A DNA stretch of 64,000 nt from the sequence record OL631257.1; one strand, written 5' to 3'. This document shows positions 959 through 5,773 of the stretch, one piece after another (position 1 is the first letter of the stretch; each line of letters opens with the position of its first letter). The position numbers were made by a program, and so were the translations under genes. This stretch comes from Escherichia phage ECCR664. Below the pieces are notes generated by a model that did not search any database, was not told where the DNA came from, and saw only the letters and a program-made list of their open reading frames with translations.

Positions 959-1530
959 TTAATTAATTAACCAAGCATTGATAAGCAAACCATATTGCGA
1001 ATAAAATTCTGGACCAAAACGAAAAATCATATCATTTATAGTATCCATAATGTAGTTCAATTTAATCATGTTTCCACACCCCATCGGTATTTGACCAAAG
1101 TCGCTGATTATCTGATCCTCGCCACAGCTTTTTGGTCGGAAGATTTTCTCATACTTCCCATCAATAATAACATCAACATATTTAAGCATTTCTAGTTGTT
1201 TAATATCTTCAAACTTGTATCCTGTCCACAACCAAATGCTTTTATTGGGATAAAGATTTTTGCTGTTTGAACAATGCAATGAATAACATCTCGGTTGTCA
1301 GGATAGAGAGGGTCTCCTCCGGTTATAGTCAATCCTTCTATATAATCATTATTCAAGCATTCAATTAATTGTTCTAGTGTTTCACCGGTGAATGGAATAC
1401 CATTTCTAGCGTTCCATGTTGATTTATTATAACACCCTTCGCATTTATGCAAACAACCTGTAACGAAAAGAACGACCCTGCAACCAGGGCCATTCACAAA
1501 ATCGCAAGGATAAAATCTATCATAATTCAT
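959..1530 (-). CDS. nrdG: anaerobic ribonucleotide reductase activating protein NrdG (radical SAM), frameshifted
   Basis: N-terminus 'MNYDRFYPCDFVNGPGCRVVLFVTGCLHKCEGC' has the radical-SAM CxxxCxxC motif; C-terminal 'WLWTGYKFEDIKQLEMLKYVDVIIDGKYEK' continues in another frame (ORFs 1192..1530 and 959..1279). Confidence 0.85.
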
Positions 1531-3343
1531 TGGTGTTTAACCCTATGCATGATTTCTTTATTTTTACCGAGATTAAATCCGCGTTCGTTCGGATTTCCAA
1601 GATAACCGCATGTTCTTCTTATAGTGTTCATCTTTTTAGGATCAGTTTCTCCACAAACTGAACAAACAAATCCGTTTTCAGTAGGAGTCATTTCATGAGT
1701 ACTTCCGCATGTAAAACATTTATCCACTGGCATATTAACACCAAAATAATCTAAATGTTGTGCAGCATAATCCCAGACAGCCTCAAGACCCTTTAAGTTA
1801 TTTTTCATATCAGGAAGTTCAACATAAGAAATGTGACCACCTGTCGCAATGAAATGATATGGCGCTTCACGAGAAATCTTTTCAAACGGAGTAATATTTT
1901 CTTCTACTGAAACGTGGAAACTATTAGTGTACCAGCCTTTATCGGTAACATCTTTTACGCTTCCATATTTTTCTGTATCAAGTTTACAGAAGCGATAACA
2001 AAGGTTTTCAGCAGGAGTAGAATATAAACTAAAAGCAAATCCAGTTCTTTCAGTCCACTGTTTAAGATGAGCATTCATTTTAGTTAAAATTTCTTGCCCA
2101 ATATCACGACCAACAAGAATATTCAATTCATGAATACCAATGTATCCTAAAGACACTGAACTTCTACCGTTTTTAAATAACTCAATTATATCGTCGTCAG
2201 GTTTAAGACGAACCCCGAATGCACCTTCTTGGTAAAGAATAGGAGCAACAGTCGCTTTAACTCCTTTTAAGGAACTAATTCTACACATCAAAGCTTCAAA
2301 ACATAAATCCATTCGTTCATTGAACAATTCGATAAATTTCTGTTCATTGAATTGTGTTCCAATATAAGAATCTAATGCGATACGAGGAAGATTCAGTGTT
2401 ACAACACCGAGATTATTACGTCCATCAAGAATTTCATTACCGGTTGAATCTTTCCATACGCTCAAGAAACTACGACAACCCATTGGAGAAACAGGAATAG
2501 ATGAGCCAGTGATAGCTTTATTGTTCTTAGCTGAAATAATATCAGGATACATTCTTTTGCTTGCACACTCTAGAGCGAGTTGCTTAATATCATAGTTCGG
2601 ATCATCTTTATAAAGATTAACACCTTCTTCAACAAACATAACAAGTTTAGGAAAAATAGGAGTTATCCCATCACGTCCAAGACCTTTAATGCGGTTTTTA
2701 AGAATTGCCTTCTGAATCATTCGTTCAGTCCAATCAGTTCCTGTTCCAAATGTTATAGTAACAAAAGGAGTTTGTCCGTTTGAACTAAAAAGAGTATTTA
2801 CTTCATATTCATAAGCTTGGAATGCATCGTATACGTCTTTTTCTGTTTTAGATTGAGCATAATTCAACGCATCAGCGATTTGCCATTTTCTGCATCTTCA
2901 ACATGTTTAGCGTATGTACGTTTAACATAAGGAGAAAGAACTTTATCGACATTTGCAAATGTAGTTCCGCCATACTGATGTGAAGCAACTTGTGCAGTAA
3001 TTTGTGCCATAATTGCAGTAGCAACACCAATCGATTTAGGCGTTTCGATTTGAGCATTGCCTAATTTAAATCCATTCTCAAGCATCCCCTTTAAATCGAC
3101 TAAACAGCAATTAGTAAACGGAAGAGCAGGAGAATAATCAATATCATGCATGTGGATAATTCCACTTTCATGCGCATTCATAATAAAAGACGGGACCATA
3201 TTTTTGGCAATGTGCTTAGACACAATACCAGCCATAAGGTCCCGTTGAGTTGGAAAAACACGAGAATCTTTATTAGCATTCTCGTTCAAAAGATCTTTAT
3301 TAGTTTTATAAATTAATCCTTCAATTTCTTTTTCAATTTTCAT
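1527..3343 (-). CDS. nrdD: anaerobic ribonucleoside-triphosphate reductase NrdD (glycyl radical enzyme), intron-less, one frameshift near 2864-2890
   Basis: ORFs 2864..3343 and 1527..2867 together match T4 NrdD end to end; glycyl-radical motif 'RRTCGYLG' and C-terminal Zn ribbon present; the break falls at a T4 run around 2886-2889. Confidence 0.95.
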
Positions 3344-3344
3344 T

Positions 3345-3812
3345 TTAAACTCTTTCTAAGCTGCTTTTGAATGAAGCTATTAATTGTGTTTTAGTATCAG
3401 ATTCATTATATTCAAATCCTCTTTGAAGCATCTCAGTCATCATTTCCTCTTTACCTAGTCTTGAGAACTCTTTAGTTTTGTCTGGAACAAAATTAGGATG
3501 GATATTATTATCAGAATAATCTTGTTTCAAATAAGCAAGAAGAGCTTCAAGCCATTCGAGGTAATCAACGTTTTGACCTTTAAGACCAGAACGGTTGAAC
3601 TTATGCTTCATTTGACCTTCTGCTGCATTGCACAGGTTACATAGTAAACCACGAACCTTACCAGCTTTTGGCCCGTTTAATTCATGGTCGTGGTCAAGAT
3701 GGTTACCTTGAACATCAGGGTCTAATTCACGGTGGCAAATAGGACACTTACCGTTCTGTGCATCATAAAATTTTTGTTTTTCTTCTTTATATTTTGCGCC
3801 TGATAATAACAT
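3345..3812 (-). CDS. 49: endonuclease VII (Holliday junction resolvase) gp49
   Basis: 155 aa 'MLLSGAKYKEEKQKFYDAQNGKC...HLDHDHELNGPKAGKVRGLLCNLCN' is near-identical to T4 gp49. Confidence 0.95.
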   Translation of the reverse strand: MLLSGAKYKEEKQKFYDAQNGKCPICHRELDPDVQGNHLDHDHELNGPKAGKVRGLLCNLCNAAEGQMKHKFNRSGLKGQNVDYLEWLEALLAYLKQDYSDNNIHPNFVPDKTKEFSRLGKEEMMTEMLQRGFEYNESDTKTQLIASFKSSLERV

Positions 3813-3841
3813 GATAAACCCTTACCTTAAATAGATAAGGG

Positions 3842-3849
3842 TATTTATA
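3842..3849 (-). promoter_or_regulatory. T4-type late promoter (TATAAATA on minus strand) upstream of gene 49
   Basis: Plus strand 'tatttata' is the reverse complement of TATAAATA, about 30 nt upstream of the gene 49 start. Confidence 0.4.
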
Positions 3850-3851
3850 AT

Positions 3852-3944
3852 TTAGTAAACGTTATAAAAGTCACGATGAAAACGTTTATATTGACGAATC
3901 ATTTTCTTAGTAGGACGTGTTACTGAAATAATTGAAGTCCTCAT
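3852..3944 (-). CDS. small basic protein (30 aa), copy 1 of a duplicated ORF
   Basis: 'MRTSIISVTRPTKKMIRQYKRFHRDFYNVY'; paralogous to the peptide encoded at 4455..4590 ('...TVRPTKRQLRKAKRSHRNFYREY'). Confidence 0.3.
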   Translation of the reverse strand: MRTSIISVTRPTKKMIRQYKRFHRDFYNVY

Positions 3945-4039
3945 ATTTGGATTGTTTGGGGCCCCAATCATAATAAATTTCCAGGATTTTTGCCCATTTT
4001 TCTTTCACCATAAAATAATTCAGTTTTCATAATAAACCT

Positions 4040-4453
4040 TTAACTTAAACGTCTTTCTAAATATTCAATGTATTCCGCTGCGGCTTGCATCAGATTACCT
4101 TCATAACCGTCATTATTTTCTTGGGCGGCTAATTTAGCTAAAGCATAAGAAATACGTTCACCTTCGAATTTGCCAAGTTCACTGTCACAAACTACTTGGT
4201 CAATTTCTTCGAGTTCATCTATTGAATGGGATTCCCAGAAGCACCAAAGACAAGTATCACGGTCATAGATGCAAAGTTTCTCACCTGTGTTCAACATCAC
4301 TTCGATAATGCCATGGTCGCCATAACCATCTTCGGTAGTAGTACCAATTACCTTGATGATTGTTCCTTTCTTTAATTCAGGAAACTTGACTTGTAGTTCT
4401 TCATCTTCTTTAACAATCTTGAACCATTTACCGCGAGTTTCAGAAATATTCAT
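4040..4453 (-). CDS. hypothetical protein (about 138 aa, start at 'MNISETRGKWFK')
   Basis: ORF 4040..4570; internal ATG at 4451-4453 is the likely start; sits in the T4 '49/pin' neighbourhood. Confidence 0.5.
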   Translation of the reverse strand: MNISETRGKWFKIVKEDEELQVKFPELKKGTIIKVIGTTTEDGYGDHGIIEVMLNTGEKLCIYDRDTCLWCFWESHSIDELEEIDQVVCDSELGKFEGERISYALAKLAAQENNDGYEGNLMQAAAEYIEYLERRLS

Positions 4454-4454
4454 A

Positions 4455-4590
4455 TCAATATTCTCTATAAAAGTTACGATGAGAACGTTTAGCTTTGCGA
4501 AGCTGACGTTTAGTAGGACGAACTGTAAATGGTTGCCCAGAGAAAAATTCGGATCGGTTTTAATAAGCAAATACCAATCGTGCTTGCCAT
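4455..4590 (-). CDS. small basic protein, copy 2 of duplicated ORF (frameshift suspected)
   Basis: Frame encodes '...GQPFTVRPTKRQLRKAKRSHRNFYREY*'; upstream ATG 'MASTIGICLLKPIRIF' is in another frame across a T-run. Confidence 0.25.
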
Positions 4591-4611
4591 TTTTAATAAA
4601 CGGTACAATAA

Positions 4612-5108
4612 TTTAACTTGCATAATAATCTCTTCCCATCTCCATATCAATTAATTCATTTATTGAAGGTTCATCATAACATGTTTCTTCGTCGTTGTAA
4701 ACTGTTTCGACGTCTGGCTCGACAGTCTCCCATCGAGCAGAATACCACGGTTTAACCCCGGAGTTTATTGAGCTCTTCATAATCAATCCAGGATTCTAGC
4801 CCTGACGGCAGGTCACATTCAATGTTCCACAGAAGCTCTTCAATGGCTTGCAGGCGATTATATTCTTCAACGGTAATGGTAACCATTGGTGCAACCGGTT
4901 CTGCCTTTTTAACCATCATATCGTTCATCAGGACGTAAAGGTCATCACGAACGACAGTGTCGTTCCAACCCCATGATTTGGCTTCGTAAGCTAATGATGA
5001 AGGGAGCACATTTAAAACTTCAATAATAGTTGGAGCATCAGGACCAAGTTCATTGGCACAAACTTCGTATACATCTTGGAAATCTTTAAGATTTAATGAA
5101 TATGTCAT
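4612..5108 (-). CDS. hypothetical protein (possible 3' frameshift; ORF 4752..5108 plus continuation)
   Basis: 118-aa ORF 4752..5108; a further coding frame continues to about 4612. Confidence 0.45.
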
Positions 5109-5367
5109 TTAAAATATTCTCGTAGTTGGTCAAAGCCACCGATCGAAGTTCCATCAGGAGCAAACACTTGAGGCATAGTCAATCCGACTTGTGATTCACG
5201 TCCAAGCTTAACAAGAAGCTCAGCAATTTTCTCATCATCGAACACACCTTTTCTGGCATAACATTAATGAATTCAAATGGCTGTTTCTTAACAGTCAGCA
5301 GTCGTTTCGCATTGTCGCAATAAATGCATTTATGAATAGTAGAGTCGTACCCGTACACTTTAAACAT
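5105..5367 (-). CDS. nrdC: thioredoxin/glutaredoxin NrdC, frameshifted
   Basis: 'MFKVYGYDSTIHKCIYCDNAKRLLTVKKQPFEFINVMPEK' matches T4 NrdC; the C-terminal 'GVFDDEKIAELL...GGFDQLREYFK' is in the -1 frame after a T4 run at 5249-5252. Confidence 0.9.
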
Positions 5368-5773
5368 TATTTTTCCTTTCATCGATTAAATATGCAACGC
5401 CAAATACAATACATGTAATAAAACCTGTGATACAGATAGAAACCAACAACACTGTACCAAAGAACCAAATCAAGTTATCTTTAGTAGTTTGTTTGATATC
5501 CATCTCACGAATTTCTATAGCTATCGTATCACCTTTATTCAGAAGCGTATAAAACGACGGTGATACATGCCTGTCAAAAACTCGACCTTGTTCATCTTTA
5601 TAGACTGCAATAAATTCTAATTTAGAATATTTTCCTGTAGATTGACCTGAAATTAATTCCACTACCTCCACAGGAATTACTTTAGTTTCCATGTAAGTAT
5701 TCTGGCTGTTCCAAATGAACGGAATAATGGCAAAAACTAAAGCTGCGATAAAACAACGAAGGCTATATCTCAT
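5360..5773 (-). CDS. predicted membrane protein (2 TM)
   Basis: 137-aa ORF with hydrophobic segments 'CFIAALVFAIIPFIW' and 'IWFFGTVLLVSICITGFITCIVFGVAYLI'. Confidence 0.5.
   Translation of the reverse strand: MRYSLRCFIAALVFAIIPFIWNSQNTYMETKVIPVEVVELISGQSTGKYSKLEFIAVYKDEQGRVFDRHVSPSFYTLLNKGDTIAIEIREMDIKQTTKDNLIWFFGTVLLVSICITGFITCIVFGVAYLIDERKNNV

Follow-up and report, generated by a model that had tools for sequence, protein, structure and literature searches.

Repeats on either side of pin in Escherichia phage ECCR664 very probably represent two paralogous genes of the DUF7279 family

The genes most closely related to those described here are known from two other Escherichia phages. RB69 (AY303349) carries two small genes, RB69ORF087c and RB69ORF089c, around the gene pin, and phage p000y carries the same genes (AYN56522 and AYN56520) at the same positions. 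Their products belong to a family that is catalogued in Pfam as DUF7279 (PF23945) and in PHROG as group 3272. With respect to genome organization, the nearest described systems are the PeSL cassettes, promoter-early stem-loop repeats that are said to mediate modular shuffling in T4-type genomes. We analyzed a stretch of 64,000 nt of Escherichia phage ECCR664 (OL631257.1), in the following called the window, which is T-even-type, RB69-like DNA of the genus Mosigvirus and contains two similar DNA segments flanking pin. With high confidence, we interpret these repeats as the coding sequences of two paralogous accessory genes of the DUF7279/PHROG 3272 family that bracket pin, which is the best explanation for the locus as a whole. 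Both genes are already annotated in RB69 and the family is catalogued, and the locus does not represent a new kind of element.

Positions 3300-5200 of the window are 98.4% identical to p000y and 97.3% identical to RB69. Every gene in this region is located on the minus strand, and the order in the direction of transcription is nrdC, several small ORFs, 49.1, copy 2, pin, copy 1, 49, and nrdD (Table 1). Since transcription proceeds along the minus strand, pin is located upstream of gene 49 and not downstream of it, as had been stated in a preliminary description of this DNA. The start codon (ATG) of copy 2 overlaps the 3' end of 49.1, the TGA of copy 2 lies 1 nt ahead of the ATG of pin, and copy 1 starts 9 nt past the pin stop codon with an AAGG motif in front. 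This tight packing of 49.1, copy 2, pin, and copy 1 is consistent with translation of the small genes, and from their position in the gene run between nrdC and 49 we assume that they are expressed early. Alignments showed that the junction of late-promoter consensus and hairpin in front of gene 49 is kept in T4, Aplg8, phiE142, and ST0. The hairpin is labelled as putative terminator in other records, and in line with the T4 literature both elements presumably have a part in the regulation of gene 49.

Table 1. Features of the pin region of phage ECCR664. Positions refer to the window.
Feature	Position	Strand	Basis or remark
Gene 49 (endonuclease VII)	3345..3812	-	3' end frameshifted by homopolymer deletion near 3369
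T4 late-promoter consensus match TATAAATA (3849-3842), then hairpin	3818..3849	-	Between copy 1 stop codon and gene 49 ATG
Copy 1, orthologue of RB69ORF087c, DUF7279/PHROG 3272	3852..4030	-	Alignment to p000y and RB69, annotated CDS in both, HMM
Repeat D1, copy-1 arm, 55 nt	3863..3917		Encodes conserved C-terminal RPTK...KR.HR.FY; holds 26-nt core 3863-3888
Nine bases common to both copies, ACTTTTATA on minus strand	3863..3871 (other arm 4466-4474)		Crossover of the natural pin deletion
Repeat D2, copy-1 arm, 42 nt	3994..4035		Encodes N-terminal M..L.Y...KNG
Frame break in copy 1	3997..4001		Run of 5 bases, 6 in p000y and RB69
pin (PinA, inhibitor of host Lon protease), 137 aa, net charge -14	4040..4453	-	Pfam Inhibitor_I24 E 4.7e-49, RB69 annotation
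Copy 2, orthologue of RB69ORF089c, DUF7279/PHROG 3272	4455..4623	-	Alignment to p000y and RB69, HMM
Repeat D1, copy-2 arm	4466..4520		76% identity to copy-1 arm, 603 bp apart; holds 26-nt core 4466-4491
First frame break in copy 2	4543..4547		Run of 5 bases, 6 in p000y and RB69
Repeat D2, copy-2 arm	4587..4628		74% identity to copy-1 arm
Second frame break in copy 2	4590..4594		Run of 5 bases, 6 in p000y, 7 in RB69
Gene 49.1, upstream neighbour of copy 2	4613..4780	-	

The two segments share a 26-nt core, TATAAAAGTYACGATGARAACGTTTA, which has two matches in the window when up to three mismatches are allowed and did not occur in any of 100 dinucleotide-preserving shuffles. Together with a second motif, TTAGTAGGACG (3907-3917 and 4510-4520), the core is part of the repeat D1. 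The preliminary description had recognized the duplicated core and the second motif, both of which are real, and had given the sequences of the two minus-strand peptides exactly. Its core positions, 3871 and 4462, deviate by 8 nt (copy 1) and 4 nt (copy 2) from the true starts, 3863 and 4466, and it had missed the upstream repeat D2. D1 and D2 are the best-conserved C-terminal and N-terminal parts, respectively, of two full-length paralogues. Between the two copies the core is identical at 24 of 26 positions, compared to 76% identity for the wider repeat, and in the codons shared by both copies in ECCR664 every synonymous position is identical. The synonymous divergence was 0.67 between copy 1 and copy 2 of p000y and 1.36 between copy 1 of p000y and copy 2 of G2469, a genome lacking copy 1, each value being based on about 35 synonymous sites. 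The near-identical core is compatible with a shared codon preference or with some gene conversion between the copies, a point that we do not press.

In the window, copy 1 is split over two reading frames and copy 2 over three, and the intact p000y orthologues (the pair AYN56522 / AYN56520) were therefore used as queries. The intact form of copy 1 is a protein of 59 amino acids (MKTELFYGERKNGQKSWKFIMIGAPNNPNMRTSIISVTRPTKKMIRQYKRFHRDFYNVY) and that of copy 2 a protein of 56 amino acids (MQVKLLYRLLKNGKHDWYLLIKTDPNFFSGQPFTVRPTKRQLRKAKRSHRNFYREY); the two are 37% identical from end to end (BLASTP E = 8e-12). With these queries, Pfam DUF7279 was matched over profile positions 1-53 of 53 with 53.7 bits (copy 1) and 54.5 bits (copy 2) at a gathering threshold of 24.5 bits. 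PHROG 3272 gave E-values of 3.9e-30 for residues 1-59 of 59 of copy 1 and 5.8e-27 for residues 1-56 of copy 2. A family HMM applied to the whole window, translated in all six frames, detected these two loci and no others. Copy 1 appeared in two pieces in different frames (4039-3971 and 4004-3855; E 5e-33 and 7e-4), and copy 2 in three (4650-4513, 4612-4043, and 4559-4458), two of which were clear (E 1e-15 and 4e-4), while the third, covering HMM positions 1-11, was not significant by itself (E 4.8). In tblastn searches of phage records, a match in one piece, spanning 80% or more of the query, was obtained for nearly all records with a match (407 of 409 and 372 of 372).

Members of the family are restricted to T-even-type phages infecting enterobacteria. 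When 1.84 billion cluster representatives were searched exhaustively with a profile, nine matches resulted, of which about five clusters are true members; word-indexed protein searches gave seven and two matches, and IMG/VR three loci. No fusions of DUF7279 to other domains were found in these wider family searches. Pfam and PHROG label the family as of unknown function, the NCBIfam search gave no match, and the PHROG neighbours 2375, 12748, 8921, and 15176 all carry the same label of unknown function. A sequence profile search of the PDB returned spurious beta-hairpin matches to designed propeller proteins alone. The literature search yielded no paper mentioning DUF7279, RB69ORF087c, or RB69ORF089c, and that for PinA and Lon contained nothing on the small genes.

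Comparison of orthologues by the Nei-Gojobori method gave dN/dS ratios of 0.07-0.31 for both copies. For example, dS was 0.63 and dN 0.063 between copy 2 of p000y and that of G2469, and dS was 1.07 and dN 0.139 between copy 1 of Aplg8 and JS98. The codons for K-R-x-H-R-x-F-Y, which lie in the core, differ synonymously in Aplg8, JS98, ESCO10, and G2469, with CGT, CGA, CGC, or CGG for arginine, AAA or AAG for lysine, and CAT/CAC, TTT/TTC, and TAT/TAC at the remaining residues. Because of these low ratios and the synonymous changes inside the core, the comparisons indicate that both genes are under purifying selection, which acts on the protein and not on the DNA core. The view of the preliminary description that conservation is at the protein level, and that the repeat belongs to two paralogous small basic proteins, is thus borne out, the core showing synonymous changes in other genera with its amino acids unchanged and both proteins matching the family profiles.

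The two small proteins have net charges of +10 (pI 10.6) and +11 (pI 10.8). AlphaFold2 predicted for the copy-1 type, with a mean pLDDT of 86.6, strands at residues 2-9, 15-24, and 27-36 and a helix at residues 42-58; the copy-2 type was predicted with the same strand-strand-strand-helix topology (pLDDT 77.4). Both proteins are thus predicted to form a three-stranded antiparallel sheet followed by a C-terminal helix. In an alignment of eight sequences, Met1, Gly13, and Trp17 were invariant, and all other invariant residues are located in the RPTK loop or in the C-terminal helix (R39, P40, T41, K42, R46, K49, R50, H52, R53, F55, and Y56). When the helix is drawn as a wheel, K42, R46, K49, R50, and R53 occupy the sector from 340 to 80 degrees, so that most of the conserved basic side chains point to one side of the helix. 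A protein of this small size with a net charge of +10 or more and a conserved basic helix surface would most plausibly bind a polyanion as part of host takeover, and we infer that RNA or DNA is a more likely target than an acidic protein such as Pin. Binding of nucleic acid by the small DUF7279 proteins, which the preliminary description had suggested along with ribosome binding, is accordingly proposed tentatively, at somewhat less than an even chance.

Being direct repeats 603 bp apart, the two genes also act as recombination substrates, a conclusion that is well supported. Recombination between the copies, with a crossover in ACTTTTATA, leaves one hybrid gene and removes pin from the locus. 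Several natural Mosigviruses have exactly this hybrid, pin-less arrangement. In phiE142 and in ST0, the latter a complete phage genome of 170 kb, a single hybrid gene is present and there is no pin between 49.1 and 49. The hybrid gene consists of the copy-2 body up to ...CATCGTAACTTTTATA and the copy-1 tail ACGTTTACTAA, followed by the late-promoter consensus and hairpin of gene 49. Its junction sequence is CATCGTAACTTTTATAACGTTTAC, the crossover lies within the nine shared nucleotides, and exactly the repeat spacing has been removed. This exact junction was found in 17 phage records representing about 15 distinct phages, and it may have arisen once in a common ancestor and not by repeated recombination. 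The reciprocal junction, a copy-1 body with a copy-2 tail that would accompany a duplication of pin, had no match in the phage collection. A pattern-based scan of IMG/VR for Pin recovered six other contigs and not that of phiE142.

Other arrangements show that the DUF7279 family is dispensable and that its copy number varies. Among the Mosigviruses, G2469 has copy 2 and pin without copy 1, and G2285 has pin and copy 1 without copy 2. At an identity of at least 80%, 145 records contained a copy-2-type gene and 55 a copy-1-type gene. The Tequatrovirus Aplg8 and the Dhakaviruses JS98 and ESCO10 have one copy, located between pin and 49. Taken by genus, many members of Tequatrovirus and Dhakavirus have one copy and members of Mosigvirus either one, in either position, or two, and T4 has none. 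Relative to Aplg8, T4 has a deletion of 137 bp, as a result of which the pin reading frame continues into the final 15 codons of the small gene, and T4 PinA accordingly ends with ...SFSDRMIQQYKRLHQMFYNT. The Tequatrovirus contig L007 contains the T4-type fused tail, a duplicated pin 3' end, and then a complete small gene, a layout from which the T4 or the Aplg8 arrangement could arise.

An alternative to the accessory-gene interpretation is that the two small basic proteins cooperate functionally with the bracketed gene, whether by binding to the acidic Pin, by acting on Lon, or by being protected from Lon. The charges are strongly complementary (+10 and +11 against -14), the genes lie close together with what seems to be translational coupling, and in Mosigvirus, Tequatrovirus, and Dhakavirus the family is always found in the neighbourhood of 49.1, pin, and 49. 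T4 PinA is naturally fused to the C-terminal 15 residues of the small protein, and Salmonella phage S16, which belongs to another genus (Gelderlandvirus), likewise carries a pair of DUF7279 genes, gp48.1 and gp48.2, around a single gene, gp48.3. However, T4 has pin without a small gene, ST0 and phiE142 have the hybrid without pin at the locus, and the T4 fusion, in which just a portion of the helix is left, is accounted for equally simply by a deletion that kept the frame by chance. Moreover, the middle gene of S16 has no detectable similarity to Pin: gp48.3 gave BLASTP E-values of 10 against Pin and 0.34 against an N-terminal-like ORF of JS98. We consider it unlikely that the small DUF7279 proteins bind an acidic protein such as Pin or act on the Lon axis.

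The S16 locus also raises the question of whether a basic DUF7279 protein, an acidic middle protein, and a second basic DUF7279 protein might constitute a functional three-gene module instead of a simple duplication, with pin in the middle in Mosigvirus and an unrelated-looking gene in S16. We regard such a module as improbable. If it existed, the small proteins would modulate the Pin/Lon axis or be protected by it, and the repeats would represent a built-in recombination switch for the loss of pin and possibly for its regain by exchange with relatives.

Returning to the two genes as intact accessory genes, the interruptions of their reading frames in the window need to be explained. They might be taken as evidence that both are true pseudogenes in ECCR664 that have decayed by frameshifts, the repeat being a relic. 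Both ORFs are indeed frame-broken in the window, RB69 differs at one of the affected runs as well, and the family is dispensable, having been lost in T4 and in some Mosigviruses. Against decay stands the nature of the breaks, each of which consists in the loss of one base from a six-base run (Table 1). Over 49 kb, comparison of the window with p000y revealed 66 homopolymer deletions and four insertions, nearly all in runs of at least five bases, and runs of six bases number seven in the window and 38 in p000y. The genes nrdD, 49, and nrdC are split likewise, and coordinate mapping placed further deletions in the baseplate genes gp5, gp7, gp9, and gp10, which are essential in T4; a viable phage with all of these deletions would be impossible. 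Outside homopolymers, both small genes are 98-100% identical to their intact orthologues. Because the deletion bias runs through the whole window, including essential baseplate genes, the frame breaks are best interpreted, by strong statistical inference, as assembly artefacts caused by systematic under-calling of homopolymers, and true pseudogenes are very unlikely.

The same base losses explain why the preliminary description had estimated the proteins at 30-45 amino acids: homopolymer deletions break both genes, and the C-terminal frame pieces alone were visible. The gene models are therefore corrected to 59 and 56 amino acids. The preliminary description had also named frame-disrupting indels in the repeat of related genomes as an argument for a non-coding element; the breaks that do occur fall outside the repeat core and are artefactual. 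In a similar way, the annotation of RB69ORF089c with 38 amino acids only is explained by the run of seven bases in the RB69 record at a position where p000y has six. Any ORF of this window that seems broken or short should be compared with relatives before it is interpreted.

The preliminary description had also considered that the repeat might be a shared regulatory RNA or DNA element. According to this explanation, a promoter, a terminator, a protein-binding site, or a small RNA is used twice and the peptides are accidental. The high identity of the core relative to the wider repeat and the identical synonymous positions mentioned above would fit such an element, and copy 1 ends directly upstream of the late-promoter consensus and hairpin of gene 49. 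However, the core lies entirely within the codons of the most conserved residues, KR.HR.FY, which in the other genomes are encoded by different codons for the same amino acids under the low dN/dS ratios given above, and the similarity covers the whole ORFs including their N-terminal part. A scan for promoters and terminators gave no match to a sigma-70-type promoter or a terminator in 3863-3917 or 4466-4520. When RNA folding was compared with that of shuffled sequences, z was 0.01 for both 81-nt segments, and over both segments and both cores the values were 0.01 to 0.13 and -0.20, equal to those of shuffles. Rfam produced three matches at chance level (E 0.14-0.86, far below gathering), none of which was located on the repeats. 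On the basis of the scan, the folding, and the Rfam results this explanation was rejected; it is largely refuted and retains a very small probability. Programmed ribosomal frameshifting or transcriptional slippage regulating the small proteins could draw on the slippery A or T runs at the breaks and on their lengths of 5, 6, and 7 in the window, p000y, and RB69, but more than 400 related genomes have a single uninterrupted frame, one shift would be required in copy 1 and two in copy 2, and runs are shortened window-wide in unrelated genes as well, and we rejected this possibility as practically negligible.

With the repeats understood as two coding paralogues, the direct importance of the locus is small, as both hypothetical genes are annotated and their family is catalogued. 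Its wider meaning is that it documents how short coding repeats drive the gain and loss of the anti-host gene pin in T-even phages. In addition, the C-terminal 15 residues of T4 PinA are the remnant of a deleted neighbour gene, which bears on studies of PinA and Lon that used the T4 protein.

When the locus is compared with known systems, the predicted fold is reminiscent of small nucleic-acid binders built of a sheet and a helix, such as the dsRBD and the PUR repeat. The DUF7279 proteins lack the first helix of the dsRBD and the fourth strand of the PUR repeat, no match to either type was significant and no sequence similarity was found, and membership cannot be claimed. The PeSL cassettes resemble the locus in two respects: an accessory gene in a variable part of a T4-type genome is enclosed by direct repeats, and this gene is lost when the repeats recombine. 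Unlike these cassettes, the ECCR664 repeats are protein-coding paralogues, and the PeSL hallmark of an early sigma-70-type promoter plus a stem-loop in each repeat is absent from both arms. T4 PinA shares its last 15 residues with the DUF7279 tail by homology, whereas the body of T4 PinA has no similarity to the small DUF7279 proteins and T4 has no free-standing DUF7279 gene. The closest relatives are the RB69 and p000y orthologues, whose DNA is 97-98% identical to that of ECCR664. The ECCR664 copies differ from them in that both are frame-broken by homopolymer under-calls, and once the homopolymer lengths are restored the proteins are identical or nearly so. Both proteins are full-length members of Pfam DUF7279 and PHROG 3272, with scores well above threshold.

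A free-standing DUF7279 gene is absent from T4 (NC_000866). Comparison with Aplg8, a Tequatrovirus carrying a single copy of this small gene between pin and gene 49, revealed that T4 carries a 137-bp deletion, by which pin has become fused, with its reading frame preserved, to what is left of the small gene, its final 15 codons. Because of this fusion, the classical T4 PinA protein ends in ...RMIQQYKRLHQMFYNT, a remnant of the neighboring DUF7279 gene. In an IMG/VR contig (L007), pin is of the T4 type, fused tail included, and is followed by a duplicate of roughly 25 nt of the pin 3' end and then by a complete small gene. Recombination could turn this duplicated layout into the T4 or the Aplg8 arrangement.

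On the minus strand, gene 49 and copy 1, the adjacent DUF7279 gene of ECCR664, have translation-initiation regions that are identical at 19 of 22 positions (TTTAAGGTAAGGGTTTATCATG and TTTAAGTTAAAGGTTTATTATG, respectively). The probability of such a match arising by chance in this 1.1-kb region was roughly estimated to be about 0.04. The likeness may be a footprint of the insertion of the small gene or may result from convergence of ribosome-binding sites. The junction of copy 1 and gene 49, which includes the late-promoter consensus TATAAATA and a hairpin, is kept in T4, Aplg8, phiE142, and ST0, and in other records the hairpin before gene 49 is annotated as a putative terminator. In several Mosigviruses, among them phiC120, ATK47, LF82-41, and JK45, the region around pin (3300-5200 of the window) was matched in two pieces with a span about 318 bp larger than in the window; phiC120 has an additional ORF close upstream of nrdC.

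Homopolymers in the window are systematically biased toward shorter lengths in comparison to p000y, with 66 one- or two-base deletions versus four insertions and only seven six-base runs versus 38. As a consequence of this under-calling, nrdD, the 3' end of gene 49, and nrdC are split, as are, according to coordinate mapping, the baseplate genes for gp5, gp7, gp9, and gp10. ORFs that appear short or broken in the window should first be compared with those of relatives. One run in RB69ORF089c, the orthologue of copy 2, comprises seven bases in the RB69 reference, six in p000y, and five in the window. Due to the seven-base run, RB69ORF089c is annotated with only 38 aa and a TTG start. Either sequencing errors recur at this variable run, or it is a site of genuine mutation.

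Coordinates of features in the window and in related phages
Feature	Genome	Position	Size	Remark
Gene 49 initiation region	window	3810-3831	22 nt	
Copy 1 initiation region	window	4028-4049	22 nt	
Late-promoter consensus and hairpin	window	3818-3849		directly between copy 1 stop codon and gene 49 ATG
nrdD	window	1527-3343		
nrdC	window	5105-5382		
Homopolymer deletions (examples)	window	748, 2890, 3369, 5253, 38259, 43387, 47503		versus p000y
pin with fused tail	T4 (L003)	4898-5383		minus strand
pin and small gene	Aplg8 (L004)	1055-1677		
Duplicated layout	IMGVR_UViG_2974787500 (L007; 167,948 bp)	2054-2770		
RB69ORF089c locus with seven-base run	RB69 (L001)	2658-2830		
Additional ORF	phiC120 (L021)	1932-2228	297 nt	close upstream of nrdC
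gp48.1, gp48.2	S16 (L014)	1489-2197 (whole layout)		PHROG 3272, PHROG 15176
gp48.3	S16 (L014)		116 aa	PHROG 13441
orf78	JS98 (L009)	1023-1504 (with orf77)	59 aa	precedes orf77
orf77	JS98 (L009)		100 aa	after orf78

An arrangement of two small genes around a middle gene was also found in a second genus, in Salmonella phage S16, where the DUF7279 genes gp48.1 and gp48.2 lie on either side of gp48.3. Similarity of gp48.3 to Pin was not detectable; its N-terminal part showed a sub-threshold FeoA-like match. In the Dhakavirus JS98, the Pin-like sequence is split between two ORFs, and the order of its parts is permuted: similarity to the helical C-terminal part of Pin (…AAADYIHWLEAQLRFSDEAF) is seen in orf78, and orf77 has the FWCFW motif of the N-terminal part of Pin.
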